64,000 nucleotides of DNA, taken from assembly GCA_017545245.1 (NCBI GenBank), contig JAFWPB010000060.1:1182-65181 (forward strand), in the 5' to 3' direction. This document shows, one piece after another, positions 7,561 through 47,166 of this stretch. Positions within the stretch are counted from its first letter, which is position 1, and each line of letters starts with the position of its first letter. The notes beneath the pieces were generated by a model. The model searched no databases. It saw only the letters and a list, made by a program, of their open reading frames with translations, and was not told where the DNA came from. The position numbers and the translations under genes are program-made. The stretch comes from Clostridiales bacterium. GTDB taxonomy: Bacteria > Bacillota > Clostridia > Saccharofermentanales > Saccharofermentanaceae.

Positions 7561-8070
7561 ATGAGTATATGTGCAATCGTAGCTGTAGATGAAAACTGGG
7601 CGATCGGAAACAAGGGGGAACTGCTTGTGAGTCTCCCTGAAGACCAGAAGCAGAACTTTAAAGTGAAAACTTTAGGCCATCCGGTCGTATACGGACGCAA
7701 GACACTGGAAACATTCCCGAAGAAGATGCTTCTTCCTGGAAGAGAGAATATCATTCTATCCAGAAATAAAGACTTTGCAGTTGATGGAGCAACTATCCTT
7801 CATTCTGTGGATGAAGTTTTGGATTATACGAAGAAACGGGAGGAGGAAGTCTTTTTTATTATTGGCGGGGCGCAGATCTATGATCAGTTTTTGCCGTATT
7901 GCGATACTTGTATTGTTACCAAGGTAAAGAAGACTTTTGAAGCCGATGCATTTTTCCCCAATCTTGATAATATCAAAGAGTGGAAGTTATACAGCCGCGA
8001 GGCGATCATTCACTCGGTGAAGGGTGTAAGCTTTGAAATATGGACCTATAGAAGATGCGCGGAAAACTGA
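7561..8070 (+). CDS. folA: Dihydrofolate reductase
   Basis: 169 aa. IVAVDENWAIGNKGELLVSLPEDQKQNFKVKTLGHPVVYGRKTLETFP and IIGGAQIYDQFLPYCD match DHFR signature regions. Confidence 0.9.
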   Translation: MSICAIVAVDENWAIGNKGELLVSLPEDQKQNFKVKTLGHPVVYGRKTLETFPKKMLLPGRENIILSRNKDFAVDGATILHSVDEVLDYTKKREEEVFFIIGGAQIYDQFLPYCDTCIVTKVKKTFEADAFFPNLDNIKEWKLYSREAIIHSVKGVSFEIWTYRRCAEN

Positions 8071-8154
8071 TGGTGTGAAAGTTGCACAAATTGGGATTGT
8101 GCAACGTGCATAACAAATAACTGTTTTGTATGTGCAACCTCTACAATCATGTCG

Positions 8155-8183
8155 TTGACTCCCAGAATCTGTTTTACTATAAT
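8155..8183 (+). promoter_or_regulatory. Sigma-A-type promoter for the 8261 ORF
   Basis: TTGACT (8155-8160), 17-nt spacer, TATAAT (8178-8183). Confidence 0.6.
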
Positions 8184-8260
8184 GAACTTGCAAAGACAGG
8201 AAAGCTTTGCAAAGGAAAAAAGGAAAAAGAAACTCATTTAGATTTAAGGAGGTAGTCACC

Positions 8261-8527
8261 ATGAAGGCATTTAACATGAGCAATGTAGATGTTCACCAGT
8301 TTATGCAGGCACTTGATTCTTGTACCGGCGACGTAATGCTTATTACAGACGAAGGTGACAAGTTCAACTTGAAGAGCAAGCTTAGCCAGATCACAGGCTT
8401 GATGAAGCTGATTGAGGGCGGTAAGCTGGTAAGTGCAAAGATCTACTGCTCCAACGTGGAAGATGAAGCATTGCTTTTCAGACTGAATCTTTTCGGAACA
8501 GTGGAAGACGTCGAGAGCATCGGCTGA
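8261..8527 (+). CDS. Small hypothetical protein (88 aa), possible degenerate HPr-like fold
   Basis: AGGAGG RBS 7 nt upstream of ATG 8261, which is the preferred start over ORF-track 8207. GDKFNLKSKLSQITGLMKLI resembles the [17 protein letters not shown] region around Ser46 of HPr. The GIHARPA active-site loop is absent. Confidence 0.5.
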   Translation: MKAFNMSNVDVHQFMQALDSCTGDVMLITDEGDKFNLKSKLSQITGLMKLIEGGKLVSAKIYCSNVEDEALLFRLNLFGTVEDVESIG

Positions 8528-8582
8528 TTTACTGACGAGCATTTCGAAAAGATGCGGTTCTTCCGCACAAATTGAAAGTAAT

Positions 8583-8607
8583 GAGAGGGCTTCGGCCCTC
8601 TTTTTTC
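8583..8607 (+). terminator. Intrinsic terminator
   Basis: GAGAGGGC / GCCCTCTT with a TTCG tetraloop, followed by a T-run. Confidence 0.85.
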
Positions 8608-8688
8608 TTTATACTTTCTTAGTAAATAGAATGTAGATATGAGATATAATGATGCGTGTGTCAATATCGATTTCAGGGTGGGGTTATT

Positions 8689-9546
8689 GTGATCAAAGAG
8701 CTTAGAGTAAACTTTTACAGGATTTTTAGAACGAAGTCTTTCTATGTGATCTTCGGTGTGATCCTTGCATTTGCCCTGTTATCGTCCTTTTTTATTTTCT
8801 TCCTTGCGGATGATCCAACCGGATTCATGGAAGGTTTTACCTCTGCTTTGGATGAGCAGCTGATTGTCGCGTCTACGGAGAGCGATGACGAGGAAGAACA
8901 AAAAAGTCAAGAGCTTGTACAAGAGTATTTTGATAACATGGCTTCCTCGAACCAGCCAACGGGTGTGCTGTCGATGCTTTGGTCGGAATTTTCTGTGTTT
9001 CTCATGGCAGTATTTGTAGCGCTGTTTGTGGGAGGAGAGTTTAAAAGCAGGTTTCATATCAACCGGTTCTCTTTAAATACCGGACGTTCTATGATATTTT
9101 TCTGCGAATGGCTTGCTTTGGCCATTGTCGGATTTTTGGTGATGGTCATATCTACAATTGTGGGAATTGCGTTGACGATCCTGTTTTGTTCAAATTTCTA
9201 TTGGGGAGACCTGGGTAGTTTTTGTGTCAAGTTTTTTCTATCATATCTGTGCCTCCTGGTTTTTATGACTTTTGCGTTTATGATAGCGGTATTCCGCCGG
9301 GCCAGCGCACTTTCTATTGTTCTTTCCAGCCTTTACATTTTTGAAGTGTTCCATCTTGTTTATGGTATTGTTTCAATTTTGAACAGTTTGATCCTTGAGT
9401 TTTCAGTAAACAATATATTTACCAACGTTTATGGCAGAACGCTGACATCGAATGATGTGTTTGCTTATTCCTTCTTTCTTCTCGGCTATATTTTTGCTTT
9501 TCTCGGTATCACGATTGGTGTTTCAAACTACCGTGATGCGTGTTAA
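8689..9546 (+). CDS. ABC-2-type transporter permease-like polytopic membrane protein (no ATPase partner nearby)
   Basis: N-terminus IKELRVNFYRIFRTKSFYVIFGVILAF is typical of ABC-2 permeases, with about 6 hydrophobic helices. A TATAAT at 8645-8650 makes the ORF-track start 8656 unlikely. GTG 8689 has a GGTGGGG RBS-like element upstream. Confidence 0.5.
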   Translation: MIKELRVNFYRIFRTKSFYVIFGVILAFALLSSFFIFFLADDPTGFMEGFTSALDEQLIVASTESDDEEEQKSQELVQEYFDNMASSNQPTGVLSMLWSEFSVFLMAVFVALFVGGEFKSRFHINRFSLNTGRSMIFFCEWLALAIVGFLVMVISTIVGIALTILFCSNFYWGDLGSFCVKFFLSYLCLLVFMTFAFMIAVFRRASALSIVLSSLYIFEVFHLVYGIVSILNSLILEFSVNNIFTNVYGRTLTSNDVFAYSFFLLGYIFAFLGITIGVSNYRDAC

Positions 9547-9601: not shown

Positions 9602-10462
9602 ATGATAAATTATCTATATAATTCCAGGGATATTGCTGCGTATTTTAAGTGGGCCGGAGTCTCATCGCATCAGGAAAAGGAGTATCTGCATTATATTTTC
9701 CTGATTGGTAAAGACATTCTTGCAAGACCTCTTACGAGAGAATACGATAGCTTCGAAACGGCTGTATACAGGGATCTTTACTATCTGTGGTCAGAAGGCT
9801 TTGAAAATGAGTTTTCCGATATTGCTACGATTGCTCCCAGAGGTTCTGTATCACTGATCTGTGATCAAGAGTTTATCTGCCTGGAATCGTACATGAAGCT
9901 TCTGGCGCTGCATCTCATTTTCTCAAGAAATCTGCCTTATGTGCATGTTAACTTTTATGGCCTGATGCTTCCTTTGGGATTAAAGGGTGAGTTTTCTGAT
10001 TATGAAAAAAATGTCGTTGTGGCTTGCGAGACACTTCATCTTGTAACAAAAGATGTATTCGGAAAACCTTTTGATCTTCACCTGGGTATTCCGGATGAGG
10101 TTCTGTGCCTGTCACTGGAACCGTCTTTCCGTGAGACATTATCCGAACATGAGGACTTTAGAAAGAGTTTTATCCGTCATGCAGCCTCAAGACTTGCTGA
10201 ATTGAAACTTACTTCCAAGCAACTGCATGAGAAAGAAGAGAAAAAGAAGGCAAGAATACTCAAGAGAAAGCTGGCCAGAGAAGAAGCGGCAAGGAATAAA
10301 GCGGAAGCAAAAGTAAAAAAAGCGGACGCTGGAAAGAAATCTTCTAAATTGAAGGATGAAGATTCAGGGAAGAAGTCTTCAAAGACGAAGAAGACGACTG
10401 AATCAGAAAATATGAAAGAACCGGAAAAGAAAACGGTAAATAGAAGGAAAACTGAAGGATAA
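9602..10462 (+). CDS. Hypothetical protein with ~85-aa Lys/Glu-rich C-terminal tail
   Basis: 286 aa. GGAG RBS. No motif I recognise in residues 1-200. The tail [41 protein letters not shown]... is strongly basic. The stop TAA overlaps or abuts the start of the next gene. Confidence 0.55.
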
Positions 10463-13400
10463 TGGGCATGGAAAAATCATTGAAGATGGGACTGGATATT
10501 GGTTCCACCACCATAAAAATCGTACTTGTGGATGATGAGCAGATCGTTTATCAAGAGTATAGAAGACATCACTCTGATATTGCAGGAGAGCTTCTCAGTG
10601 CTTTTGAAGAAGTGAACAAGAAATTCCCTGGACTTGTGGTACGTGTGCAGATCACAGGTTCGGGCGGATTGTCTGTCGCAAAGTGGCTGGGACTTGATTT
10701 TGTTCAGGAAGTCATTGCTGAGACAGTGGCTATCTCCAAGTATCATCCTGAGACGGATGTTATCATCGAGTTGGGCGGTGAGGATGCAAAGATCACATAT
10801 CTGCATCCGGTACCGGAACAGAGAATGAATGGTACCTGTGCTGGTGGTACAGGTGCGTTTATCGACCAGATGGCAACCCTTCTCCGAACTGATGCCGATG
10901 GCCTGAATGAATTAGCTAAATCTTATACGACACTCTATACGATTGCTTCCCGATGCGGAGTATTTGCCAAGAGTGACCTGCAGCCGTTGATCAATGAGGG
11001 TGCTGCGAAAGAAGACCTTGCTGCATCGATTTTCCAAGCTGTTGTTAATCAGACGATCGCGGGTCTTGCGTGTGGACGTCCGATTCGTGGTCATATCGCA
11101 TTCTTAGGTGGACCTTTGTATTTCAATTCTGAACTTCGAAGAGCTTTTGAGCGAACACTGGAAGAACAGGTCAAGTCCTTCTGGATCCCGGATAATGCGC
11201 AGATCTATGTCGCACTGGGTGCGGCGCTTGGTGCCAAGGGAAATGAAGTCAAGCTTTCTGATCTGATCGCTTCTTTTGCTTCAAGAGAAGGATTTGAGCC
11301 GGATATCAAGCGTATTGCGCCGCTTTTCAAGGATGCGCGTGAAAAAGAGCTTTTCGATGAGCGTCATCAGAAAGCGACTTTGGATCTTTACCAGCTTTCG
11401 AAGCAGAAGGGGCCTTGCTACCTGGGTATCGATGCCGGAAGTACGACTACGAAGGCTGTTCTGATCAATGAAGAAGGACAGATGGTCTATACCTACTATG
11501 CAAGTAACCAGGGAAATCCGGTTAAAAGTGCGGTCAATATCGTAAAACAGCTCTATGAGCAGATGCCGCCGGAAACGTACATTGCCAACAGCTGCGTGAC
11601 TGGATATGGAGAGAATATCATTCGTGCGGCATTGGGTGTGGATCTTGGTGAAATCGAGACGATGGCGCACTTCCAGTCTGCAAAGTATTTCTGCCCGGAT
11701 GTAGACTTTATCATCGATATCGGCGGACAGGATATGAAGTGCATGAAGATCCGAAATGGTGTAATTGACTCCATCATGTTGAATGAAGCATGTTCATCAG
11801 GATGCGGATCTTTTATCCAGACATTTGCGGAAAACCTCAATATGGATGCACATACTTTCTCGATCGAAGCGCTTTCGGCGGAGAATCCGGTGGATCTGGG
11901 AACAAGATGTACCGTATTCATGAACTCGAAAGTGAAGCAGGCGCAGAAGGAAGGCGCGACTGTCGGTGATATTTCCGCCGGCCTTTCCTATTCGGTCGTT
12001 CGTAATGCGCTTTATAAGGTTATCAAGATCCGTGACACGCAGGAACTTGGAAAGAAGATCGTCGTGCAGGGCGGAACGTTCCTGAATGATGCGATCCTGC
12101 GTTGTTTTGAGCTCATTTCCGGACGTGAAGTCATAAGGCCGAATGTTGCAGGTTTGATGGGTGCTTTTGGTGCCGCGATCATTGCGAAGAAGCGTATGCC
12201 GAAAGACCAGAAAGTCTCCGGACTTTTGGGACTGGAAGATCTGAACCGCTTCGATATGACCACAGAGATGACGACATGTCCTCTTTGTACAAACCATTGT
12301 AAACTGACGATTTCCACATTCAGTAACGGCGAGCGCTTTATTTCCGGTAACCGCTGTGAGCGTGGCGAAGGAAAAGAGAAGGCGAAAGAGACGCTTCCTA
12401 ACCTGATCGCTTATAAGTACGCAAGAACATTCCGTTATAAACCGCTTGCGAAAGATAAGGCAACACGTGGCGAGATCGGTATTCCGAGAGCGCTGAATAT
12501 GTATGAAAACTATCCGTTCTGGTTTACTGTGCTTACAGAGCTTGGCTTCTCGGTCATTATTTCACCGAGATCGAATCATGAGCTTTTTGAGAAGGGCATG
12601 GATTCGATTCCGTCAGAGAGCGTCTGCTATCCGGCCAAGCTTGTTCATGGACATATTGAGAGCCTGATCGAAAAGGGAATCAAGACGATCTTCTATCCGG
12701 ATATTCCGTATGAACGTCAAGAGAATAAGGATTCCGGCAACCACTATAACTGCCCGATCGTTGCATCCTATCCGGAAGTTATCCGTAACAACCTGGAAAA
12801 CATCCAGGATAAGGGAATCAAGTATCTGAATCCGTTCCTTCCGCTTGATAATGACGAAGCATTGGCAGAACAGCTTGCAATTGCTTTTGCTGATTACGAT
12901 GTTACGAAAGCGGAAGCTGCTAAGGCCATTGCCGCTGGTAATAAAGAGTACGATGAATACAAGGCGGACATCCGAAGAAAAGGACAGGAGGTCATCGAAG
13001 ACCTTGCAAGAACCGGACAAAAGGGTATCGTTCTTGCTGGACGTCCATATCACAATGACCCGGAGATCCATCATGGTATTCCGGAAATGATCAATTCCCT
13101 GGGATTAGCTGTCTTGAGCGAAGACAGTGTTGCTGTCCCGGGCCGTCTCGAGCGCCCGATCCGCGTCATCGACCAGTGGATGTATCATACACGACTTTAT
13201 GAAGCTGCTGCGTATGTAGCGACAAACGATAATCTGGAATTGGTACAGCTGACTTCGTTTGGATGTGGCTTGGATGCCGTTACTTCCGATCAGGTGCAGG
13301 AGATCCTGGAATCCCAGGGTAAACTGTATACACTCCTTAAAATCGATGAGGTCAGCAATCTTGGCGCGGCCCGTATCCGTATGCGTTCTTTGAAAGTGGC

Positions 13401-14859
13401 TATGGATGAACGTGAGGCGGCAAGAAAAGACGGCACGATGCCGAAGAGAGAAAGAAAGTCCTATACGATCAAGAGAGTTCCTTTTACCGAGGAACATAAG
13501 AAGCGTCATACGATCCTTGCTCCACAGATGGCGCCGATCGAATTTGAATTTGTTGAGGCGGTATTCCATCATCACGGATATAAGCTGAAAGTGCTGAAAG
13601 AAGCGACACAGGCAGATATTGAGTGCGGCCTGCGTTTTGTAAATAACGATGCTTGTTTCCCGACGGTTATTGTTGTCGGACAGATGGTCAATGCGATCCT
13701 TTCCGGTGAAGTGGATAGGGATAACACGACAGTACTGATTACCCAGACCGGTGGTGGCTGCCGTGCGACGAACTATGTTGCTTTCTTGCGAAAAGCACTG
13801 CGTGAGGCAGGATATGGTGATATTCCAGTTATCGCGTTGTCCGTTCAGCAGTTTGAGAAGAATCCTGGTTTCAAACCGACACTTCCGTTTATCAACAGTG
13901 CGCTTCGTGCGATCTGCTATGGTGATATGCTGCAGACTCTGCTTCTGCGTGTCCGTCCGTATGAGAAGGTGAAAGGTTCAGCCAATGCGCTCTACCAGTT
14001 CTGGAACCGTTGCGGAAAACTCTTTTTCAATCCGAAGGAGAAATTCGAAGATATCACGACGGAGTACATCATGGCAGAAGCCTGCAAGAATGCGCCTCTG
14101 ACGGATGATGAGAAGAAAGCAGTAGAAGATCTTCTGAAAGAACTGCACTGCAGTAAGGTCGGGCGTCCGTCCTCTTACAGAAAAATGATCGATGCTACGA
14201 TCGATACATTTGATAAATTCCCGATGCTGGATATCCCGAGAAAACCACGTGTCGGTCTTGTCGGAGAGATCCTGGTAAAATTCCAGCCTGACGCGAATAA
14301 CCACGCCGTGGATGTTGTCGAGCAGGAAGGCTGTGAAGCAGTTGTTCCTGGCCTTCTTGACTTCTTCCTGTACTGTGCGATGGGTCCGGTCTGGGCTGCG
14401 GAGCATCTCGGCAGAAGCAAGAAATCCGCATGGCTTTCCAACCGCGGTATTGATCTTCTCCAGTCCTATCGCCGCCATATCGTAAAGAGAATGGCGCAGA
14501 CCGGAAAATTCCAGTTGCCGGAAAGCATCCGTCATATGGCAAAGAAGGCAGAGAATGTACTTTCCTGCGGTAACGATAACGGAGAAGGATGGTTCCTGAC
14601 AGCGGAAATGATCGAGCTGATCGAGAGCGGCGTTCCGAATATCATCTGCGCCCAGCCTTTTGCATGTCTTCCAAACCATGTAACCGGTAAAGGCATGATC
14701 AAGGAACTACGTCGTCAGTATCCGCTGTCCAATATCATCCCGATCGACTATGACCCGGGTGCCAGTGAAGCGAATCAGTTGAACCGTATCAAGCTTATGG
14801 TCAGCACGGCACATTACCGTGAAGAGATGAAGCAAAAAGAACAGGAGAGCAAGAAATAA
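10462..14859 (+). CDS. BCR/HAD-family fusion protein: two BcrAD/BadFG (HgdC-like) activator ATPase modules plus DUF2229/2-hydroxyacyl-CoA-dehydratase-like domains (possible PlsAR-type enzyme)
   Basis: 1465 aa; ATG 10468 is an alternative start with better RBS spacing. [11 protein letters not shown] and [11 protein letters not shown] are ASKHA phosphate-1 motifs. Paired Cys contexts [22 protein letters not shown] and [22 protein letters not shown]. Cys-rich [11 protein letters not shown]...[12 protein letters not shown]2229-like [25 protein letters not shown] and [13 protein letters not shown]. Confidence 0.85.
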
Positions 14860-27185: not shown

Positions 27186-28517
27186 ATGAACGAACCGGTA
27201 GTGACGATCATCGGCGCAGGACTGGCCGGCTCTGAAGCGGCATGGCAGGTGGCGCGTCATGGGGTGAAGGTACGTCTTTATGAGATGAAGCCTGTCCGAA
27301 AGAGTCCTGCACACCACACGGAGCAGTTCGCTGAGCTGGTTTGCAGTAATTCACTTCGTTCCAACCAATTAGAAAATGGTGTTGGTCTTCTGAAAGAAGA
27401 ACTTCGTATATTAGGCTCCTTGATCATGGAATCGGCTGATAAGGCGCAGGTTCCTGCGGGCGGAGCTTTGGCTGTTGACCGTGAAGAGTTCTCCGGTTAC
27501 ATCACCGAGAAGATAAAAGAACATCCGCTTATTGAAGTTGTATACGATGAAATCAAAAAGATTCCGGATGATGGTATTGTTATTGTTGCAACTGGTCCAC
27601 TCACGGATGGTGATCTTTACGATGATATTATGACCAAGATTGGTCAGAAGGATATGCACTTCTTTGATGCTGCCGCTCCGATCGTGATGGAATCAAGTAT
27701 CGACCGCTCGATTTGTTTTGCCATGTCGCGATATGGTAAAGGCGGAGATGACTATTTAAACTGCCCGATGAACGAAGAAGAGTATCGTCGTTTCTATGAA
27801 GCTTTGGTTTCTGCAGAACTTGCTGATGTCAAAGGCTTTGATAAAGAAACTGTTTTTGAAGGCTGTATGCCAATCGAGACGATGGCCAAGCGCGGCTACG
27901 ATACTATGCGTTTCGGACCTTTGAAACCTGTAGGACTCATTGACCCAAGAACAGGGAAGGAGCCATATGCCTGCGTACAACTGCGTCAGGATGATAGAAT
28001 GGCTTCTATCTACAACATTGTCGGCTTTCAGACCAGACTCAAATTCCCGGAGCAAAAGCGTGTTTTCAGCATGATCCCGGGACTTGAAAATGCTGAGTTT
28101 ACGCGGATGGGAGTCATGCACAGGAATACATATATTGAATCTCCCAAACTTCTGGATGCTTCTTATCGGCTTCGTGAAGATCCGAGAGTGTTCTTCGCAG
28201 GGCAGATCACAGGCGTAGAAGGATATATCGAGTCAACTGCATCCGGCTACCTTGCCGGTTATTATGCTGCATCGCAGGTCAGAGAGGATATGGATCCGGT
28301 TTCTTTTAGCGCTGAAACCATGATCGGAGCAATGGCTGCTTATATTTCTGATCCGAATGTCAAACACTTTGTTCCGATGAATGCAAACTTCGGACTGGTG
28401 GCTCCTTTGGGTTACAAAGTGAAAGGAAAGAAAAAAGAAAAGAATCTTGCCTATGCAGAGCGTGCGATTGCTGAAGTGTGCAAGAATAAAGAAACGATGG
28501 AGAATTTTTGGAAATGA
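27186..28517 (+). CDS. trmFO: Methylenetetrahydrofolate--tRNA-(uracil54-C5)-methyltransferase TrmFO
   Basis: 443 aa. FAD motif IIGAGLAGSEAAWQ, ELVCSNSLRS, FAGQITGVEGYIESTASG. Classic dprA-topA-trmFO order. Confidence 0.95.
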   Translation: MNEPVVTIIGAGLAGSEAAWQVARHGVKVRLYEMKPVRKSPAHHTEQFAELVCSNSLRSNQLENGVGLLKEELRILGSLIMESADKAQVPAGGALAVDREEFSGYITEKIKEHPLIEVVYDEIKKIPDDGIVIVATGPLTDGDLYDDIMTKIGQKDMHFFDAAAPIVMESSIDRSICFAMSRYGKGGDDYLNCPMNEEEYRRFYEALVSAELADVKGFDKETVFEGCMPIETMAKRGYDTMRFGPLKPVGLIDPRTGKEPYACVQLRQDDRMASIYNIVGFQTRLKFPEQKRVFSMIPGLENAEFTRMGVMHRNTYIESPKLLDASYRLREDPRVFFAGQITGVEGYIESTASGYLAGYYAASQVREDMDPVSFSAETMIGAMAAYISDPNVKHFVPMNANFGLVAPLGYKVKGKKKEKNLAYAERAIAEVCKNKETMENFWK

Positions 28518-29383
28518 AGTTAGGTAGAATACAATTTGAAGACGGGATCAAGCCAGCTGTCAGTGGCGGATTCTGGAGAACTTTCGGTCGTAACTGGAGT
28601 AGATTGATATCCTGTAATGCACTCTTCTTGATTTGTAATATTATCTCCATGTTTATTGCGTTTTTCATGGTGCTGACGATGTTTCCGTTCCTGTTCAAGA
28701 TATTCCTTTTTGAGAATTTTAAGGATTTTCTTGTTTCTAACGGTATGTTTACGCTCGAAGAGGCTACCGATGAGGCCGTTAACAGCATTTATTATCTGGT
28801 CAGCCTGATCTGTGAGATGTCACTTGTCGGTTTTCTTCTGATCATAAATGGTCCGATCCAATGTGGAATCTGTTATTACATGAGAAACATGATAACCGGA
28901 GATGCGTCTTTCAAGGCTGATTTCAAGAAAGGCGTGAAAGAAAACTGGAAGAAGGGACTTGGCGCCAGCATCATTTCGCTTCTTGTGACAGTTATACTGA
29001 TCTTTAATATCGGATATTACAAGAACGTCAGTTCCGGAACGGTCACGCTGTTCGTGCAGGGTTTCTTTATCTGGTGCCTTGTTTTCTGGTCTTGTCTGCA
29101 ATTATATGTCTATCCGCTGATTGCATGTACCAAGCTTTCTTTGAAAGATGTATACCGTAATGCAGCGCTTTTCTTCTTGAAGAAGTTCTTCTCGACACTG
29201 GGTATTTTCCTGATCCAGATGGTTCTCTTTTTCGGTCTGCCATTTGTCCTGATCTTCTTAGTGAGTCAGGTCGGATATGCCATCGCCATGCTGTTTTATA
29301 TCCTTTTTTCGTTTGGTTTTGTTATTTTCCTGGGAACCTATCAGTCCTGGAAACTCATTCAGAAATACGTCAAAGAACAATAA
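28508..29383 (+). CDS. YesL/DUF624-like polytopic membrane protein
   Basis: 291 aa. GGFWRTFGRNWSRLISCNALFLICNI followed by ~6 hydrophobic helices. Overlaps trmFO by 10 nt. Confidence 0.5.
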   Translation: MEMKLGRIQFEDGIKPAVSGGFWRTFGRNWSRLISCNALFLICNIISMFIAFFMVLTMFPFLFKIFLFENFKDFLVSNGMFTLEEATDEAVNSIYYLVSLICEMSLVGFLLIINGPIQCGICYYMRNMITGDASFKADFKKGVKENWKKGLGASIISLLVTVILIFNIGYYKNVSSGTVTLFVQGFFIWCLVFWSCLQLYVYPLIACTKLSLKDVYRNAALFFLKKFFSTLGIFLIQMVLFFGLPFVLIFLVSQVGYAIAMLFYILFSFGFVIFLGTYQSWKLIQKYVKEQ

Positions 29384-29525: not shown

Positions 29526-31004
29526 ATGATACAGTGTGAAAGAGGTCATTTCTTTGATGAGAACCGTTATGCTGGTTGCCCATACTGCAATCAGATCGCC
29601 AGTCAACAAAGGAGTGTTATACCTCCTATTGCTCCAGCTATGGAGATTCCGAAACCATCTTGTGGAAAGACTGTTGCTATTGAGGGAATGGATACTGCTC
29701 CACAGATCAGCAAGACTGTCGCAATCGATGGATTCGAGGATAATTATCCTCATGTAAATAAGACTGTATCGATCACGGAACAGCTTTCGCCTTCCGGTCT
29801 TCCCGAATTTGCTCCGGCTGCTGCTGTTGCACCAATAGCTGCAAGTGCACCTGCTGCACAACCTGCACCGGCCGCTCCGACTGCGGTGGAAGTTCCTGCC
29901 GCTCCAGCAGTACAGGCCGCTCCAGTTGAAACAGCAGTTTCCAGCCCAGCTCCTTTTGCGGCCGCACCTGCTCCGCAAGAAACAGCGGATGCTTCTGCTG
30001 CACAAGTTAACAATGCTCCGGATCTTTCCTCTGATCCTGAGTCGTTCATGCGTCCTTATCAGGTAACCGGATTGGGTGTGAAAGAAAACCCGACACCGAT
30101 TCCTGTAAATGAACCAGTCTACGATCGTCCTTATGCCGTTTCGGGGCTGGGAGTAAAAGAGAATCCGACACCAACACCTTCTGATGTGGGTGCAACTTTC
30201 CCTGTAGAGCAACAAGGTGCAGCACCGATGGCTGCTGAGGCAGCGGCATTTGCATCTTTTGGTTTCCCGGGTGGACCTGTTCCGGGTATGATGCCTGGTA
30301 TGGTTCCGGGCATGCCACCGGCTCCGGCATCACCGTTTGCTTCTCCGGCACCTGCAGCACCTGAGGTTCAGGCTGAGCCTGCTGTTGCCGAAACGCCTGT
30401 GGCTCCGGTTGAAGCCGAAACACCGGTTGAACCTGCTGTACCTGAGGTTCCTGCTGAACCTGCAGTATTCGAGGCACCGGTTGAAACACCAGTAACCGAG
30501 AAACCTGTTGAACCTGCTGCTGTTGAAACACCAGTTCAACCTGAAGTGGCTGAAACACCAGCTGAATCGGTAGTTTCCGAAGTTCCTGTGGTTCCGGTAG
30601 TTCCTCAAGCTCCGGCTGATCCTCATGCGACTGTAGCAATGACAGAATCCGATATGGATTATCTGCCGAGGCTGCACGCAAGAGCTTTTTTCGTATGTAT
30701 AGATGGTCCTATGACAGGTGCAAGCTTTGTATTCCAGGAGAATAAGGCGATCATCGGCCGTCAGAAGAATTATGAGATTTCGCTTTTCAGAGATCCGTCT
30801 GTATCGCGTAACCCGCATGCGATTATCCGTTATGCCAAAGAAACACTGACTTATACTGTTGCTCCAGGCGATGCGGAGAAGAAAGTATCTGTAAATGGCG
30901 AGTTTATTTCCCAGGAGCAGACTCTGAAACTTTACGATATCGTGGGTATCGGTCAGACAAGACTTCTGTTCATTCCAGTCTGCAGTGAGAAGTTTGCATG
31001 GTAA
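29526..31004 (+). CDS. Zinc-ribbon / long Pro-Ala-rich disordered linker / C-terminal FHA domain protein
   Basis: GAGGAA RBS favours ATG 29526 (MIQCERGHFFDENRYAGCPYCN). Low-complexity PA/ETPV region at ~29800-30620. FHA motifs IIGRQ, SVSRNPHAII, VSVNGEFI, IGQTRLLF. Confidence 0.85.
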   Translation: MIQCERGHFFDENRYAGCPYCNQIASQQRSVIPPIAPAMEIPKPSCGKTVAIEGMDTAPQISKTVAIDGFEDNYPHVNKTVSITEQLSPSGLPEFAPAAAVAPIAASAPAAQPAPAAPTAVEVPAAPAVQAAPVETAVSSPAPFAAAPAPQETADASAAQVNNAPDLSSDPESFMRPYQVTGLGVKENPTPIPVNEPVYDRPYAVSGLGVKENPTPTPSDVGATFPVEQQGAAPMAAEAAAFASFGFPGGPVPGMMPGMVPGMPPAPASPFASPAPAAPEVQAEPAVAETPVAPVEAETPVEPAVPEVPAEPAVFEAPVETPVTEKPVEPAAVETPVQPEVAETPAESVVSEVPVVPVVPQAPADPHATVAMTESDMDYLPRLHARAFFVCIDGPMTGASFVFQENKAIIGRQKNYEISLFRDPSVSRNPHAIIRYAKETLTYTVAPGDAEKKVSVNGEFISQEQTLKLYDIVGIGQTRLLFIPVCSEKFAW

Positions 31005-31948
31005 TGGAAACAGTTCTTGCATCTTTAAATATGGAGAAAGCGAAGGATTTTCTTCATCATTGGGGGATTTTGTGTGCTCTTGTCCTAGTGCTGGTTATCG
31101 CCGTGATCCTGGTTATTCTGGTTTTGAAACGGAAAAAGGGAAAGGTGGTTGTGCCGAGCATGGCTGATCATTCCACAGGCACAAAGATGAGCAATGGCCT
31201 GTTTGAGATTGAAATCGGCAATTGTCAGGGAATTGGAGAAAGAGAAGAACAGCAGGATGCTTTTGGATTCTCGCCCAATAACAAGTGGAAAGATAAAGGT
31301 TTTCTAGCCGTTCTTTGCGATGGTATGGGTGGTCTGGATTCCGGTGCGGTGATTTCCAATAAGCTGGTAGCGGACGTGATCAAAGAGTTTCCGTATTCTT
31401 TTGATGCGCTCAAAGAAGGCTGGATCATCGATTCTCTTTCTGCGGAGATCTATTCCCAGTATAGTGGTCGTGGCGGTACAACGCTGATCATCACATATTT
31501 GAAAGACGATAAGCTTTGGTTTGCTTCAGTCGGAGACAGTGATCTGCTTCTTTACCGAGGCGGTCGTATCTATGCGATGAATCAAAGACAGGAATATGGA
31601 AATCACCTTCTTATGAAGGTGGTGGACGATGCTCTTGCGATGGAGCAGATCGAAGGAAATCCTGATGCGCCGGCTTTGACGGAGTTTATGGGTGCACAGC
31701 ATGCTGATCCTGACTATTCGATCACGCCGTGGCAGGTAATGGATGGAGATACATATCTTCTTTGTTCTGATGGTATTTCAGATACTCTGTCTTTCGATGA
31801 GATCCGTGAGGCGATGTCCCACTCGCCGGCAGAATGCGCGGAAATTCTTGAAAAGAGTATAATGGAGAAAAATAAGAGATATCAAGATAACTATACTGCA
31901 ATCATTTTTTCAATCAAAAGGGTGGAGGTTTCAAATGAAGTGGGTTAG
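30998..31948 (+). CDS. PP2C-family Ser/Thr phosphatase with N-terminal TM anchor
   Basis: 316 aa. TM ILCALVLVLVIAVILVILVL followed by KRKKGK. PP2C motifs EEQQDAF, VLCDGMGG, SVGDSDLLLY, LLCSDGISD, QDNYTAI. Start overlaps the upstream stop. Confidence 0.85.
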   Translation: MVMETVLASLNMEKAKDFLHHWGILCALVLVLVIAVILVILVLKRKKGKVVVPSMADHSTGTKMSNGLFEIEIGNCQGIGEREEQQDAFGFSPNNKWKDKGFLAVLCDGMGGLDSGAVISNKLVADVIKEFPYSFDALKEGWIIDSLSAEIYSQYSGRGGTTLIITYLKDDKLWFASVGDSDLLLYRGGRIYAMNQRQEYGNHLLMKVVDDALAMEQIEGNPDAPALTEFMGAQHADPDYSITPWQVMDGDTYLLCSDGISDTLSFDEIREAMSHSPAECAEILEKSIMEKNKRYQDNYTAIIFSIKRVEVSNEVG

Positions 31949-33269
31949 AAGAATTATCATGATACTGTTGGCGTTGGGCATCGCTGGTTGTGGTTTTTTG
32001 TCCTATTTGTCCTATGACAAGTGGAAAGAAGCAGATAAGGAAGTGACACGCCTTTCCTTGCTCAAAGATACACAGGGTGTAAGCATTTCAACTTCTGAAA
32101 ACCAGGAGTCGGTCGTATTTGTCATGTGTATCCGAGAATCAGATATGGCCGGCGGATACGGCTCCGGATATGTGGTTGGTGAACCCGGAGATAAGGCTGA
32201 GTACATCGTAACGAATGGTCATGTTGTTTCTTATCTTGAAAAGGATGATTCATTCGAAGTTCGTGTATATTTCGGAAAGAACGATTACAAGCCTGCAGAA
32301 GTTATTTTCTATCAGTATGATAAGAAACTGGATATGGCGATCCTCAAGCTTTCCAAGCCTACTTCTGATCGTACGCCTGTAGTGATCCGTGACTCTGATG
32401 AAGTTAATGCTGGTGATAAGTGTGTTGCCATCGGTTATCCGGATAAGGCCAATGACCTTGATACGAATTTTGCTGCGGATATTGCCAGCCAGACAGTTAC
32501 AGCCGGTGTTATCGGTAAAGTAAATGTTTCTCCTGCAGGTAAGTCCTACAAGTCATTCCAGATTGATGCGTTTATCACTCATGGTAACTCGGGCGGACCG
32601 CTTTTCGATGAGAATGGTTTCTTGATCGGTATGAACACGGAGGGCCGTGAAGACTCTGAAAACGTTAACTTCTCCATTTCAAGTAACGAGATCACAAAGA
32701 TTCTTGATAAAGAAGATATCGATTACACAACTAGTGATGATTACATTAAGAGTGAATCTGCTGACTCAAAAAAATCCGGTAAAAAGAAGTCCGAATTGTC
32801 CAAGAAGGAAGAGGAAGCGAATACAGAGAAAATCAAGTGCTTTGCCTTTGCGGGCGGTGCCGCTCTTTGTGCCGTTATTCTTCTTATTCTGGCGATCGTA
32901 GGAAATAAGAAAGTCGTCATGGTTGGCGAACAGGATGATGGAAAGAAGTCGATCCTTTACTGTACAAAAGGTCTTTATGCCGGACAAAGATTTGAGATTA
33001 CCGGTCATACGATGACTTTCGGACGCGACAAGAATACCTGCACGTTCGTTTTCCCGGAGAATACCCCGGGTATCAGTTCCAACCATTGCTCTGTATATTT
33101 CGATGCAAGAACCAAGAATTTTGTTCTTACAGATAATGGATCAACTTACGGTACTTATCTTGCTGACGGAAGAAAACTGACGAAGGGCGTTCCGGAGCAG
33201 ATCGCTCCCGGCTCTACGTTTGCCCTGGCCGATAAGGCGAACGAATTCCGTATAGAAAGAGAAGAATAA
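31935..33269 (+). CDS. Trypsin-like (S1) serine protease ectodomain - TM helix - cytoplasmic FHA domain fusion protein
   Basis: 444 aa. GGTGGAGG RBS. N-terminal LALGIAGC lipobox/anchor. Catalytic contexts TNGHVV, LDMAILKL, THGNSGGPLF. KKSGKKKSELSKKEEE linker. TM FAFAGGAALCAVILLILAIVG. FHA motifs TFGRD, ISSNHCSVYF, DNGSTYGTYL. Confidence 0.85.
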   Translation: MKWVRRIIMILLALGIAGCGFLSYLSYDKWKEADKEVTRLSLLKDTQGVSISTSENQESVVFVMCIRESDMAGGYGSGYVVGEPGDKAEYIVTNGHVVSYLEKDDSFEVRVYFGKNDYKPAEVIFYQYDKKLDMAILKLSKPTSDRTPVVIRDSDEVNAGDKCVAIGYPDKANDLDTNFAADIASQTVTAGVIGKVNVSPAGKSYKSFQIDAFITHGNSGGPLFDENGFLIGMNTEGREDSENVNFSISSNEITKILDKEDIDYTTSDDYIKSESADSKKSGKKKSELSKKEEEANTEKIKCFAFAGGAALCAVILLILAIVGNKKVVMVGEQDDGKKSILYCTKGLYAGQRFEITGHTMTFGRDKNTCTFVFPENTPGISSNHCSVYFDARTKNFVLTDNGSTYGTYLADGRKLTKGVPEQIAPGSTFALADKANEFRIEREE

Positions 33270-33271: not shown

Positions 33272-33979
33272 ATGGATTTTTATTCGTACACAAACAAGTG
33301 CGGGCATGAGCCGAATTGCGACTACCATCAGTTTATTGAGCACAATGATCAGATCCTGATGGTTGTTTGCGATGGCTTGAATGGTCTGCCTTCCGGTGAT
33401 GAAGCGTCGAAGATCATTGGGGATCTTGCGATCGCGGCGTTGATCGAAGGGGAGACTCCGGCGCAGGCTTGTATTACGGCGAATAAGAAGTTCCGTGAAA
33501 TGCAGTTTGACCAGGTAGCATTGCGTCGTGCCGGAGCCACGATCTGCGTGGTACGGATAAAAGATGGAATCTGCTCCTGGGCGAATGTTGGTGATTCACA
33601 TATTTATCATTTCTCCGAAGGGAAACTGGCACATCATTCTCATGACGATACGATGGCATACCAGATGTTTGAACGTGGGGAATGTGATTATGAAGCGATC
33701 CGTGAGATCGAAAACCGGACAGGTATGAATATCTGCGTGGGGCAGAAGGATGAAATCGTGCCGCATGTGGAGGAGTTTTCATTTAACGATCAGGATGGAA
33801 TACTTGTTTGTACAGACGGTTTTTGGGAGAATGTGTACGAAACCGAGATGATGATCGACATGATCAAATCAGTTAATGCAAAAGACTGGGCACGCAAAAT
33901 GCTTTTGCGTGCTTCGCAGCGTGGCCGGCTCAAAGGCGACAATATGACGCTGATCACTTATAAGAGAATGGCGGGTTGA
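33272..33979 (+). CDS. Soluble PP2C-like phosphatase (divergent motifs)
   Basis: 235 aa. MVVCDGLNG, ANVGDSHIYH, LVCTDGFWE, KGDNMTLI correspond to PP2C metal-binding motifs. No TM segment. Confidence 0.7.
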   Translation: MDFYSYTNKCGHEPNCDYHQFIEHNDQILMVVCDGLNGLPSGDEASKIIGDLAIAALIEGETPAQACITANKKFREMQFDQVALRRAGATICVVRIKDGICSWANVGDSHIYHFSEGKLAHHSHDDTMAYQMFERGECDYEAIREIENRTGMNICVGQKDEIVPHVEEFSFNDQDGILVCTDGFWENVYETEMMIDMIKSVNAKDWARKMLLRASQRGRLKGDNMTLITYKRMAG

Positions 33980-33983: not shown

Positions 33984-36446
33984 ATGGATACGAAGAATCT
34001 GTGCTTTGGATGTTTTAATGCTCATAACGGACAAGGACCATGTCCACGTTGTGGATTCGATCTTGCAACGGTGAAGCATCCTTTCGTTGCTCTCCCGATC
34101 GGAACGATTCTGAATGGACGGTATCTGACCGGCCGTGTACTAGGTGTGGGCGGCTTTGGTGTGACCTACCTTGCTTTCGATATGACGCTGGAAATCTGTG
34201 TGGCGATCAAGGAGTTCCTGCCATCAGGTATAGCGCTTCGTGATTCTGACAGATATACGATGACAGTCAGTTCTCCGGATGAACAGCCGAAGTTTGATTC
34301 CGGTGCGTCCAGATTCCTTGAAGAAGCAAGACTTCTTGCCAAGCTCCGTGATGTTCCGAATATCGTAACCGTGCAGGATTATTTCCGTGAAAATAATACC
34401 GCTTACTTTGTCATGGAGTATATTGAAGGCGTCGATCTGATGAAATATACGCAGATGCGCGGTGGTAAGCTTTCCTATGAAGAGACACTGCAGCTTACGC
34501 TTCCAATCATCGATTCTCTTGCACATGTTCATGCGCACAATCTTTTGCATCGTGATATCAGTCCTGACAATATTGTTGTGATGAAGAACGGTTCAACACG
34601 ACTTCTGGACTTTGGCGCGGCAAGACTGGCAATCGATACAGAGAAGAGCAAATCGATCATTCTCAAGCATGGATTTGCTCCGGAAGAACAATATAGAAAA
34701 CATGGTAATCAGGGCCCTTGGTCAGATGAGTATGCCCTTGCAGCGACGATGTATCTGGTCATGACAGGTGTTATGCCGCCGGATGCCATCGAACGTGTCC
34801 ATACGGATACGCTTGTTTCCCCGCTTCAGCTTGGTGTGCAGATTCCACAGCATGCGAACGATGCTTTGATGAAAGCACTTGCCGTCAATGCTTCCGAAAG
34901 ATTCCCGGACATGAGTTCTTTTTCCGAAGCATTAACAGGAAGAAAAGCAGTTGCTCCGATTACGTATTCTGCTGTAACTGACGTAATGAGCGGAACGCCA
35001 AGTACGGAACTGCCTAATGCCGGTTCGGTCATGGAAGGCAATATGGTTGAGGGCAAGACAGTTGCTATGGTAGAAGAAGTACCAGCTGTTTCCGCTCAGG
35101 GCGTTCCGGGACAACAGGCACCGCAGCAGGTTCCTGCGCAAGTCCAGCAAGGTATGCCGCAGGCACAGGCTCAGGCCCAGGCACAGGCGGGGCAGAAGGT
35201 AATCTCGCCATCGATCCTGAATCCTGCCCAGGCACAGGCTCTTCAGACAGAAAGACAGACGGTTCAGCCTCCGAAGGTGAAGAAGAGTATTTGGAAGCGT
35301 CCTGTCACGTATATCGTTGCTGCATTGATTGCTTTGGTCGGTGCAGGTGTGCCGACAGGTATTTTCCTGTATCAGAACGGATACCTGGGCGGAGAGACGG
35401 AAGAAACGACAAAGAGACCGAGAAGGACCACGACTACGGAGGCAACAACGGAGACAACGACCGAGCCGACTGAATATGCGGATCCCTCGATTTTTGAAGA
35501 GGGAGACTGGCGGGATTATACGGACCAGACGCGTATGTTCATGATTTCGGCGCCGAAAAACTATAACTTTGAGAGCGATGAGGGCCTCTATATTCTGAAG
35601 CGTGACGATGGCAAGTGTGTTGTATATACTGATTTCCTAACGCATTACGGCTACGACAGGATTTCTTCTTTGAGCGATTTTGTTGCATTAAGCAGAACGT
35701 TTGTTGAACAGTATGTAGACAACGAATTTGATTTGAAGGATTTTTCGTTGAAATCTACTGATTATGGGTTCATCCATCTCTCTAATGATTGTTATAGCGT
35801 GATGGTTGATGCCAATGCTGTCTTAAATGGAGAAAAGGTCGACGTTACGTTCATGGCGACGGAATCCAAAGAAAAAGAAGGTGTCTTCCTGAATTGTGCT
35901 GTCATGCCGCTGGACGATAAAGGCATGTATTCCAGTGATGACTGGGATGAATTACAGCAGATTCTCGGAAGCTTTGCAGAAGACACGACAAAAAAGAGTT
36001 CATATGAATTGTATGAATCTGATCTGACCCCGTCTTTCGAATTCTTGTATAAAAAGGATGACGTGGCTTCGATCCAGCAGGGAACAGTGGCAAATTCACT
36101 GACTTGTACGGATATTGCGATTTCTGAATCGAATCCGGAGAAGAATCTGATCCGTATAGTGAATCTCGGAAAGCAGAGTTCCATCACATCGGCATGTAAA
36201 ACAATGGAGCAGGCGATCGGCTTCTCCGTTGGCGGATATACGGCAGTCACCCCGATCGTGCGTACAGATCTGGATATCCGTGTCCGGAATTACACGGTCC
36301 AGAAAGATGGTGAGGATCTGAACTGTACGGCATGTGCCATGAAGTTAGGCGGACAGTACTATGGTGTGATAGCGGTCTGTGATGATGATTCGCTTGAAAA
36401 AGTTACACTGGCCTATACGTTAGCCGTGATGTCGCTTTCCAACTGA
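33984..36446 (+). CDS. Hanks-type Ser/Thr protein kinase with N-terminal zinc ribbon, single TM and ~350-aa non-PASTA ectodomain
   Basis: 820 aa. CFGCFNAHNGQGPCPRCGF. GVGGFGVTY G-loop, VAIKEF, HRDISPDNIVV, DFGAAR, GFAPEEQY. Gln/Ala-rich linker. TM VTYIVAALIALVGAGVPTGIFLY. Thr-rich stalk, then an unassigned ectodomain. Confidence 0.9.
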   Translation: MDTKNLCFGCFNAHNGQGPCPRCGFDLATVKHPFVALPIGTILNGRYLTGRVLGVGGFGVTYLAFDMTLEICVAIKEFLPSGIALRDSDRYTMTVSSPDEQPKFDSGASRFLEEARLLAKLRDVPNIVTVQDYFRENNTAYFVMEYIEGVDLMKYTQMRGGKLSYEETLQLTLPIIDSLAHVHAHNLLHRDISPDNIVVMKNGSTRLLDFGAARLAIDTEKSKSIILKHGFAPEEQYRKHGNQGPWSDEYALAATMYLVMTGVMPPDAIERVHTDTLVSPLQLGVQIPQHANDALMKALAVNASERFPDMSSFSEALTGRKAVAPITYSAVTDVMSGTPSTELPNAGSVMEGNMVEGKTVAMVEEVPAVSAQGVPGQQAPQQVPAQVQQGMPQAQAQAQAQAGQKVISPSILNPAQAQALQTERQTVQPPKVKKSIWKRPVTYIVAALIALVGAGVPTGIFLYQNGYLGGETEETTKRPRRTTTTEATTETTTEPTEYADPSIFEEGDWRDYTDQTRMFMISAPKNYNFESDEGLYILKRDDGKCVVYTDFLTHYGYDRISSLSDFVALSRTFVEQYVDNEFDLKDFSLKSTDYGFIHLSNDCYSVMVDANAVLNGEKVDVTFMATESKEKEGVFLNCAVMPLDDKGMYSSDDWDELQQILGSFAEDTTKKSSYELYESDLTPSFEFLYKKDDVASIQQGTVANSLTCTDIAISESNPEKNLIRIVNLGKQSSITSACKTMEQAIGFSVGGYTAVTPIVRTDLDIRVRNYTVQKDGEDLNCTACAMKLGGQYYGVIAVCDDDSLEKVTLAYTLAVMSLSN

Positions 36447-44447: not shown

Positions 44448-44800
44448 CTGAGCTGGACCAGATGATCGCGGGCACGAGTGCCGAAAGGCCGTGCATGAGG
44501 AAAGTCCGGGCTCCGTAGGACAAGGGTGCCGGGCAGTTCCCGGTGAAGGCAACTTTAAGGAAAGTGCAACAGAAAAGAAAACCGCCGTGTTTTTCGGAAC
44601 ATGGCAAGGATGAAAAGGCGAGGTAAGAGCTCACCAGCGGTATGGTAACATATCGGCTTTGTAAACCCCACCTGGAGCAACGCCGTGGGAGATGTTAACT
44701 GTGGTCCGCAGGTCTCAAGGAGGCGGCTTGAGCCGGAACGAGATTTCCGGTCTAGATAGATGATCATCATAGACAGAACCCGGCTTACGGTCCAACTCAG
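44448..44800 (+). ncRNA. rnpB: RNase P RNA (bacterial, class A-like)
   Basis: P4 strands GAGGAAAGTCCGGGCTC (44497-44513) and ACAGAACCCGGCTTA (44773-44787). GGAAAGTGCAACAGAAA element. P1 pairing CTGAGCTGGACC (44448-44459) with GGTCCAACTCAG (44789-44800). TATAAT at 44431-44436 upstream. Confidence 0.9.
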
Positions 44801-44868
44801 AAAATGTTATTGTGTAAGATCCGTCGGGAAACCGGCGAAAGATGAAATAAAGAAAGAAGGATAATGAC

Positions 44869-47090: not shown

Positions 47091-47166
47091 GTACCTTTAG
47101 CTCAGTTGGTAGAGCAACTGACTCTTAATCAGTGGGCCCAGGGTTCGAGTCCCTGAAGGTGCACCA
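47091..47166 (+). tRNA. tRNA-Lys (anticodon CUU)
   Basis: Hand-folded. Acceptor GTACCTT/AAGGTGC, D-arm GCTC..GAGC, anticodon stem ACTGA/TCAGT with loop CTCTTAA (CTT), T-arm CAGGG-TTCGAGT-CCCTG, encoded CCA. Confidence 0.9.

Follow-up and report, generated by a model that had tools for sequence, protein, structure and literature searches.

A predicted HtrA-like protease-FHA membrane protein encoded in a Ser/Thr kinase, phosphatase and FHA adaptor cassette of gut Clostridiales

HtrA proteases and signalling modules composed of a Ser/Thr kinase, a PP2C phosphatase and an FHA domain are each already well studied. Here, we describe a gene in which both themes meet, found on a stretch of 64,000 nucleotides (nt) from a Clostridiales bacterium of the family Saccharofermentanaceae (GenBank assembly GCA_017545245.1, contig JAFWPB010000060.1, positions 1,182 to 65,181), which we call the window. 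The gene (positions 31935-33269, forward strand) encodes a protein of 444 residues with an HtrA-like protease domain in the N-terminal half and an FHA domain in the C-terminal half, separated by a single transmembrane (TM) helix, and it is the third of five tightly packed genes on the same strand, which also encode an FHA adaptor, two PP2C phosphatases and a receptor-type Ser/Thr kinase. New is the cassette context of an HtrA-type protease-FHA fusion. We think it somewhat more probable than otherwise that the protein is an HtrA-type exoprotease without PDZ, in which a phosphopeptide reader serving the kinase cassette, on the opposite face of the membrane, has taken the place of the regulatory peptide-binding module.

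The protease domain finds its best sequence and structure matches among HtrA, DegP and DegS (MEROPS S1C), with which it shares the chymotrypsin fold, the His-Asp-Ser triad, the GNSGGP motif, the N-terminal anchor and the predicted extracytoplasmic catalysis. It differs from them by the absence of a PDZ domain and by a second TM helix leading to a cytoplasmic FHA domain, and its NCBIfam scores of 50-98 bits compare with cut-offs of 408-800 (degP_htrA_DO 98.2 versus 416, SerProtHtrA 96 versus 470, DegS 55 versus 423). The MarP protein of Mycobacterium tuberculosis (Rv3671c) is also a membrane-anchored, PDZ-less extracytoplasmic S1 protease (NCBIfam match with E 1.4e-19), but it carries four TM helices at its N-terminus and lacks an FHA domain, and the score lies well below the cut-off (70.4 versus 250). 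MarP processes a peptidoglycan hydrolase, and we know of no link between MarP and a kinase cassette.

The C-terminal half, with a TM helix, a short linker and a C-terminal FHA domain, has the layout of FhaB/FipA (Rv0019c), to which it is weakly similar (NCBIfam FhaB_Rv0019c 28.9 versus a cut-off of 125, E 1e-6). The mycobacterial fhaA-fhaB-pstP-rodA-pbpA-pknA-pknB cluster resembles the cassette in combining an FHA adaptor with a long linker, a membrane PP2C and a receptor Ser/Thr kinase. However, an ectodomain enzyme is missing from FhaB, neither rodA nor pbpA lies nearby in the window, and the adaptor carries a Zn-ribbon instead of the FhaA N-terminal domain. In the ABC exporter Rv1747 and in GarA/OdhI, a cytoplasmic FHA domain reads phosphothreonine (pThr) made by a kinase and thereby controls a membrane or enzymatic function, the outputs being export and tricarboxylic acid cycle enzymes, whereas here the output would be extracytoplasmic proteolysis. 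The cis switch of GarA/OdhI is resembled by the adaptor, which has HATVAM/GKTVG just upstream of its own FHA domain and whose FHA region matches the NCBIfam OdhI model with E 2.4e-4. Taken alone, the FHA domain of the protease-FHA protein resembles FHA domains of known structure only weakly (best E 0.0016, ArnA 0.05), and its similarity to the Rv1747 FHA domain is negligible (E 0.58).

Two further systems share parts of this composition. The Sulfolobus protein ArnA (PMC7472852) has the Zn-finger and FHA architecture of the adaptor, with a weak PDB match (5a8i). In type VI secretion, the kinase/PP2C/FHA triad PpkA-PppA-Fha1 controls a membrane-associated machine and matches the composition of the cassette. 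In contrast to both, there are no archaellum or type VI secretion genes here, and the controlled element would be a protease that carries an FHA domain itself.

FHA domains fused to a membrane or extracytoplasmic peptidase, as in the present protein, appear in two publications. A catalogue of domain architectures from 2008 lists FHA-FHA-Trypsin for a Bacteroides thetaiotaomicron protein (NP_811686.1; PMC2605481), and a computational remark from 2012 describes PrsW-FHA fusions as probable "signalling peptidases" (PMC3482391). The Bacteroides protein has the opposite domain order to ours, PrsW belongs to another peptidase class, and neither is characterised; the cassette and the topology are described in neither publication. 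The original prediction for this gene, made from the sequence alone, had found no studied protein to match it, which agrees with our literature searches, in which solely uncharacterised FHA-peptidase fusions turned up. The cassette, the size of the family, the HtrA-like character without a PDZ domain and the poor conservation of the lipobox go beyond what that prediction had noticed.

The gene is an uninterrupted open reading frame (ORF) with zero internal stops and with a GGAGG Shine-Dalgarno sequence 7 nt 5' of its ATG. From the N- to the C-terminus, the protein is composed of a signal-anchor, an HtrA-like S1 protease, a charged stalk, one TM helix and the FHA domain, with the features given below. 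Conservation counts out of 88, here and in the following, refer to an alignment of 88 homologues of the protein.

31935-33269, forward strand: gene for the bitopic protease-TM-FHA protein (ORF, Pfam Trypsin_2 and FHA, conserved architecture, Shine-Dalgarno sequence)
31953-32015, forward strand: N-terminal hydrophobic segment, residues 7-27, following MKWVRR (+3), a putative signal-anchor (hydropathy, AlphaFold2)
32112-32714, forward strand: predicted extracytoplasmic HtrA/DegP-like serine protease domain without PDZ, residues 60-260 (Pfam, NCBIfam, phmmer, Foldseek, triad conservation)
32220-32222, forward strand: catalytic His96 (TNGHVV motif)
32331-32333, forward strand: catalytic Asp133 (LDMAILKL motif)
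32589-32591, forward strand: catalytic Ser219 (GNSGGP motif)
32715-32840, forward strand: charged, predicted extracytoplasmic linker or stalk, residues 261-302, including KKSGKKKSELSKKEEEANTEK (AlphaFold2 helices 267-277 and 281-323)
32841-32903, forward strand: central TM helix, residues 303-323 (hydropathy 2.76)
32946-33263, forward strand: predicted cytoplasmic FHA domain, residues 338-443 (Pfam FHA E 3.4e-11, residue conservation, AlphaFold2)
33024-33026, forward strand: predicted pThr-pocket Arg364 (conserved in 86/88)
33075-33077, forward strand: predicted pThr-pocket Ser381 (86/88)
33084-33086, forward strand: predicted pThr-pocket His384 (87/88)

The Pfam matches to Trypsin_2 (residues 76-233, E 3e-24), Trypsin (E 1.4e-15) and FHA (residues 361-431) are all above the gathering cut-offs. 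The hydropathy profile contains exactly two hydrophobic segments, residues 7-27 (IIMILLALGIAGCGFLSYLSY) and 303-323 (FAFAGGAALCAVILLILAIVG). The AlphaFold2 model, for which the alignment of the 88 sequences served as input, has a mean predicted local distance difference test (pLDDT) score of 91.8 and consists of a helix at residues 2-44, a beta-rich protease at residues 60-260, helices at residues 267-277 and 281-323, and an FHA beta-sandwich at residues 338-443, with the juxtamembrane residues 325-331 disordered. We are highly confident of this architecture and of the topology discussed below, and both the protease and the FHA module look functional, as judged by residue conservation.

The triad residues are nearly invariant, with His96 kept in 87/88, Asp133 in 88/88 and Ser219 in 87/88 homologues. 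The triad aligns to those of S1 proteases by sequence (S1/HtrA) and by the fold found with AlphaFold2 and Foldseek. The best PDB match by phmmer is the M. tuberculosis HtrA1 protease (E 1e-17), and the Foldseek search of the PDB with the protease domain resulted in Deg1, DegP, DegQ, DegS and M. tuberculosis HtrA/PepD (E down to 2e-15), with target-normalised TM-scores of up to 0.78 for DegS chains lacking PDZ (DegS-deltaPDZ). The protein has no Pfam match to a PDZ domain, residues 261-444 being taken up by the stalk, the TM helix and the FHA domain, and in the homology search PDZ-bearing proteins occur solely among the weak, protease-only matches (P0104 onward). By fold and sequence, the domain is a predicted PDZ-less, HtrA-like protease; since it lacks the PDZ domain and scores below every curated cut-off, we call it HtrA-like and do not assign it to a named HtrA subfamily.

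The FHA domain scores 43.8 bits against a Pfam gathering threshold of 20.7, and its beta-sandwich is modelled with block-mean pLDDT values of 93-98 from residue 341 onward. Its signature residues are well conserved, namely Gly363 (88/88), Gly406 (88/88) and Thr407 (87/88), in addition to Arg364, Ser381 and His384 listed above, and a predicted fourth pThr-pocket residue, Thr404, is Thr or Ser in 84/88 homologues. The protease motifs named in the original prediction (TNGHVV, LDMAILKL and GNSGGP, 87-88/88) and its FHA motifs (TFGRD, ISSNHC and GSTYGT, 84-88/88) are thus present where they had been placed and are strongly conserved.

The topology was derived from hydropathy, charge bias, conservation and the location of FHA ligands, which, being pThr residues made by ATP-dependent kinases, are to our knowledge confined to the cytoplasm. 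A hydrophobic N-terminal segment precedes the catalytic His in 84/88 homologues, and in 86/88 the stretch from the catalytic Ser to the FHA Gly-Arg motif contains a single TM helix. Within the 15 residues flanking the central TM helix, the mean number of Lys and Arg residues across the 88 homologues is 1.7 towards the protease and 3.0 towards the FHA domain. From the N-terminal charge, the hydrophobic segment, the one central TM helix and this bias, it follows that the protease is predicted to lie outside and the FHA domain inside the cell, and this holds for a cleaved, a lipidated and a retained N-terminal segment alike. The protease-out/FHA-in arrangement of the original prediction is supported by these counts.

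The same prediction had left a choice between an N-terminal anchor and a lipobox. The hydrophobic segment stands as a family feature, while the lipobox does not: the lipobox-like IAGC with Cys19 is present in our protein, but the corresponding column holds Cys in only 15/88 homologues, Ser being the commonest residue, and a homologue with 74% identity (P0003) already has Ser. Since Cys19 is so poorly conserved, lipidation is, judged from the alignment, no conserved family feature, and we downgraded the idea that the protein is a lipoprotein. The AlphaFold2 model folds residues 2-44 into a single helix (pLDDT 86-93). The charged linker expected ahead of the second helix was found at residues 279-299; the KKSGKKKSELSKKEEEANTEK stretch directly precedes this helix, and the stalk is modelled as a helix continuous with it. 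Within the clade of the window, longer segments between the first TM segment and the protease go together with longer ones between the protease and the central TM helix, the paired lengths running from 34/42 up to 68/74 residues (overall Pearson r=0.69, not corrected for phylogeny). This fits a retained N-terminal helix that pairs with the helix before the central TM helix to form a two-helix stalk. Distant homologues have short N-termini resembling classical cleavable signal peptides.

The fusion is found in a large family. The homology search against 5.8 billion proteins resulted in about 100 clusters with the Trypsin_2 and FHA composition, down to 24% identity; the few named clusters carry solely the label "trypsin-like peptidase domain-containing protein", and their hosts are uncultured Clostridiales or Saccharofermentans. 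The profile search against 1.84 billion representatives at 50% identity yielded 6,081 proteins with E<=1e-30. Among the matches listed, all 150 of 150 representatives span the protease, the TM helix and the FHA domain (E<=1e-112), with lengths of about 400-720 residues. Since protease-only HtrA matches in the homology search reach at most about 80 bits, the majority of the 6,081 representatives probably carry both domains. Scanning genome contigs with a profile of the family alignment mainly resulted in generic HtrA genes, with full-length relatives only at the loci L001 and L002, and so added little on the taxonomic range. The gene itself is recovered in six independent gut metagenome runs, which contain 100% of its sampled 31-mers, and in part in further bovine-gut runs, and contigs aligned to it show no indels. 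We therefore rejected a fusion by misassembly or by frameshift, the latter raised as a check in the original prediction itself: the 150 listed full-length representatives and the six runs identify a single gene.

The five genes of the cassette, in our reading translationally coupled, follow each other with overlaps of 7 and 14 nt and then gaps of 2 and 4 nt. Apart from the protease-FHA gene, they and their domains are as follows.

29526-31004, forward strand: adaptor with an N-terminal Zn-ribbon, three K-T-V motifs, a long Pro/Ala-rich spacer, HATVAM and a C-terminal FHA domain (Pfam FHA, Yop-YscD_cpl)
30998-31948, forward strand: membrane-tethered PP2C phosphatase (Pfam PP2C_2 and PP2C; NCBIfam Stp1/IreP-like below cut-off)
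31061-31126, forward strand: TM helix of the tethered PP2C, residues 22-43, followed by KRKKGK (hydropathy)
33272-33979, forward strand: soluble PP2C phosphatase (Pfam PP2C_2 E 4e-12; NCBIfam Stp1-like E 4e-31, below cut-off)
33984-36446, forward strand: receptor-type Hanks Ser/Thr kinase with Zn-ribbon, kinase domain, linker, TM helix and ectodomain (Pfam Pkinase E 5e-30)
35304-35372, forward strand: TM helix of the kinase (hydropathy)
35376-36443, forward strand: kinase ectodomain of about 355 residues, fast-evolving and without Pfam match

We compared the window with the contexts of 12 homologues (L numbers) at identities between 60% and 24%. The protease-FHA gene has neighbouring genes for a Ser/Thr kinase and a PP2C in 12 of the 13 contexts, that is, in the window and at L081, L082, L084, L085, L086, L088, L089, L090, L091, L001 and L002, usually in the same order, and ten of these also have the Zn-ribbon-FHA adaptor. 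The kinase at L090 and the PP2C at L091 were recognised by reading the sequences. The genes flanking the cassette are unrelated between contexts; within the clade of the window, its place between dprA-topA-trmFO and tgt-queA is stable down to protein identities of about 60%. We conclude that the protease-FHA protein is very probably a dedicated component of the cassette. Variations include a small protein of 108-136 residues in place of the second PP2C (L082, L086) and a second kinase (L001, L088, L089, L091). One cassette host has been cultured, Cohnella yongneupensis KACC 11768, where the kinase ectodomain contains PASTA and FG-GAP modules.

The kinase ectodomains are much less conserved than the proteases. 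Between the window and L082 (P0056), the proteases are about 37% identical, and the kinase ectodomains share a 12-residue match with E 6.5. Comparing the ectodomains all against all by BLAST indicates weak relatedness among some only, and the homology search with the kinase ectodomain of the window found one near-identical partial protein only. Such divergence is what one expects of a sensor exposed to the environment. The predicted secondary structure of this ectodomain hints at two tandem alpha/beta modules, the single-sequence AlphaFold2 model being unreliable (pLDDT 35).

Other FHA-fused membrane proteins are encoded beside the cassettes, namely a vWA-TM-FHA protein at L090 (4456-6117), a DUF805-FHA protein at L001 (4637-5359) and, at L088, a fusion of a PrsW intramembrane peptidase to FHA (11473-13002) and two TM-FHA proteins (7322-9097). 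This suggests that FHA-coupled membrane effectors are a wider theme around the cassettes. Directly upstream of the cassette in the window lies a gene for a polytopic membrane protein of 291 residues (28508-29383), negative in Pfam and PADLOC searches and syntenic at L081 (290 residues), which may be part either of the cassette or of the trmFO neighbourhood.

In sheep and bovine gut metatranscriptomes, the adaptor, protease and PP2C genes are each covered in part by contigs of low depth, which weakly suggests expression of the cassette. In run X13, a contig of low depth leaves out 164 nt (30786-30951) at the end of the region coding for the adaptor FHA domain, a short way ahead of the PP2C start; 164 is no multiple of 3, and either strain variation or an assembly artefact may explain the skip. 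The scan for promoters and terminators gave nothing above shuffle expectation, and the Rfam scan gave no match in or near the cassette.

The adaptor and the kinase contain short Thr motifs that are candidate phospho-acceptor and docking sites.

29664-29777, forward strand: three adaptor motifs, GKTVAI, SKTVAI and NKTVSI, between the Zn-ribbon and the FHA domain
30624-30641, forward strand: adaptor motif HATVAM, just upstream of the adaptor's own FHA domain (motif scan)
35052-35069, forward strand: GKTVAM in the juxtamembrane linker of the kinase (motif scan)

The pattern [GSNCA][KR]Txx[VILM] occurs 24 times in the 2,776 residues of 10 adaptors, with at least one site in each, compared with 0.8 sites expected from shuffled sequences and a maximum of 5 in 2,000 shuffles. 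In each adaptor, the repeats, of the form G-[KR]-T-x-x-[VILM], are located in the region that separates the Zn-ribbon from the FHA domain. The other cassette proteins have 7 sites of the counted pattern in a total of 18,782 residues, two of which sites are the GKTVAM motifs in the kinase linkers of the window and of L081. The homology search with the adaptor is dominated by a close clade, owing to the low-complexity spacer, and we drew on it only to count motifs in that clade: [KR]TV occurs exactly three times in 66/70 close adaptor homologues, with Ile at T+3 in 176/204 sites. A hydrophobic residue at pT+3 is preferred by many FHA domains and is likewise found at acceptor sites of mycobacterial Hanks kinases. 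The G-K-T-x-x-[I/V] motifs are thus candidate pThr docking sites, judged from sequence pattern and frequency. The adaptor has a second conserved repeat, the short linear motif RPY[QA]V[ST]GLGVKENPTP, in two copies within the Pro/Ala-rich spacer (about 30078-30215; residues about 190-235 of the 497-residue ORF), which is shared with L081 and P0189.

These observations suggest how a protease with an inward-facing phosphopeptide reader might work. The kinase would sense an extracellular or cell-envelope cue via its variable ectodomain and would phosphorylate the Thr of the adaptor G-K-T-x-x-[I/V] motifs, of which there are usually three, and in this clade also its own juxtamembrane linker. The cytoplasmic FHA domain of the protease would dock on these pThr sites, and the phosphorylation state would set the location and clustering, and hence the activity, of the outward-facing protease, which in HtrA-type enzymes is normally a trimer. 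The tethered and the soluble PP2C would reset the system. Phosphorylation of the motifs, binding by the FHA domain, inside-out control of the protease, the direction of signalling and the substrate are what we infer, with different degrees of confidence. Docking of the FHA domain on the G-K-pT motifs is a tentative proposal that falls somewhat short of an even chance, and an activation of the protease by docking is more doubtful than that. The likeliest substrates would be cell-envelope proteins or the ectodomain or ligand of the kinase itself. The match between three adaptor sites and the usual HtrA trimer is suggestive, by analogy. It would allow an inside-out switch, in which the pThr triplets of the adaptor gather the three FHA domains of one HtrA-type trimer and so assemble or allosterically activate the protease outside; this specific form we regard as rather unlikely.

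Several points weigh against the proposal of a phosphopeptide-reading exoprotease. Our literature searches found no functional study of any trypsin- or HtrA-FHA fusion and no experimental data on the family. The canonical Asn of the FHA S-T-N-G-T motif is Tyr405 here, with Tyr in 76/88 homologues and Asn in 6/88, which may alter the peptide specificity and make recognition atypical. The protease-FHA protein contains no G-K-T motif and therefore would be a reader and not a site. As in GarA/OdhI, the adaptor's own FHA domain could bind the G-K-T sites in cis. At L087, the gene of the most distant homologue stands alone, with no cassette around it. The AlphaFold2 prediction is of a single chain, the HtrA-type trimer being assumed for this protein. 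The metatranscriptome contigs are thin and might include DNA. Finally, our protein has 4 Lys and Arg residues on either side of the central TM helix, owing to its Lys-rich stalk, so that the local positive-inside signal is neutral.

An alternative is that the FHA domain controls location only. The protein would then be a constitutive quality-control or processing HtrA, which the FHA domain tethers to a phosphorylated membrane complex, such as the kinase or division or wall-synthesis proteins, with catalysis unregulated. Many Gram-positive HtrA proteins are indeed simple membrane-anchored housekeeping enzymes. The TM-linker-FHA layout and the weak FhaB_Rv0019c match (E 1e-6) invite the analogy with the recruitment of FhaB/FipA in mycobacteria, the Cohnella cassette kinase carries a PASTA domain, and cell-wall hydrolase genes lie beside the cassette at L084 (PcsB-like NlpC/P60) and L091 (M23). 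However, no rodA, pbp or ftsW is linked in any examined context, the PDZ domain, as the usual regulatory domain of HtrA proteins, is absent family-wide with an FHA domain present instead, and two dedicated phosphatases and a multi-site adaptor would be a heavy investment for tethering. We consider this alternative unlikely.

The GKTVAM motif in the juxtamembrane linker of the kinase in the window and at L081, which is the motif of the adaptor, raises a second alternative, namely that the protease is recruited through its FHA domain to the autophosphorylated kinase, where it cleaves the kinase ectodomain or its ligand and thereby ends or converts the signal, information flowing from the kinase to the protease and back rather than to a separate output. 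Kinase and protease would be suitably placed, each having an ectodomain on a single TM helix, and the very fast evolution of the kinase ectodomains is in line with such a role. Most other cassette kinases lack the motif, though, and the protease is well conserved, while the ectodomain types are unrelated (PASTA/FG-GAP, tandem alpha/beta and others), which makes a conserved cleavage target in them less likely. Receptor shedding or feedback of this kind is improbable.

The cassette might also be a conflict or defence module, in which the kinase ectodomain detects a phage or competitor and the extracellular protease is the effector that degrades receptors, toxins or invader proteins. Predicted conflict systems repeatedly contain Ser/Thr kinase, PP2C, FHA, vWA and trypsin domains (PMC7159879), and the vWA-FHA partner at L090 and the rapid diversification of the kinase ectodomains would suit this idea. 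PADLOC gave domain-level matches of the kinase to PD-T4-6 and mad6 and of the protease to the protease module of RT-Protease_XI, but these are generic; the adaptor and the TM-PP2C had no PADLOC match, and there was no full-length match to a defined system. In the clade of the window, the cassette occupies the stable core-chromosome site between dprA-topA-trmFO and tgt-queA, with no defence-island neighbours or signs of mobile elements seen, and an effector outside the cell is atypical for the logic of abortive infection. We regard a defence role as very improbable.

That two genes were fused by error, or that both domains lie on one side of the membrane, has a negligible probability, given the full-length listed representatives, the six runs containing all sampled words, the lack of indels and the conserved two-TM architecture, with the neutral charge around the central TM helix of our protein as the sole weak point in the opposite direction.

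The cassette lies on the core chromosome of a fibre-degrading ruminant-gut Clostridiales, the matching runs being gut, bovine gut and sheep gut metagenomes. Two other genes of the window are consistent with an anaerobe of this kind.

5237-7429: GH10 xylanase with a CBM_4_9 module
10462-14859: BadF/BcrA-type CoA-enzyme activase fusion of 1,465 residues (DUF2229)

The window also contains housekeeping features at 975-1204, 1263-3041, 3710-3782, 44449-44803 and 47091-47163, which comprise a T-box leader, lying upstream of the gene for a threonyl-tRNA synthetase, together with two tRNAs and an RNase P RNA of class A.

The family of protease-FHA proteins is very large, with thousands of clusters at 50% identity, and common in gut and rumen Clostridia, yet uncharacterised, and the fusion of a cytoplasmic pThr reader with an HtrA protease outside has so far been unexamined. 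If the FHA domain controls the protease, the protein would provide a direct route from Ser/Thr phosphorylation to extracytoplasmic proteolysis, possibly for envelope remodelling, signal shedding or the turnover of surface proteins, and an alternative to the PDZ-based regulation of HtrA proteins. The cultured host and the repeated G-K-T-x-x-[I/V] motif make this question testable. If the inside-out switch were true, intracellular Ser/Thr phosphorylation would gate extracellular proteolysis, a bacterial analogue of inside-out receptor activation, and the replacement of a PDZ domain outside by an FHA domain inside would be a new regulatory principle for HtrA proteases.

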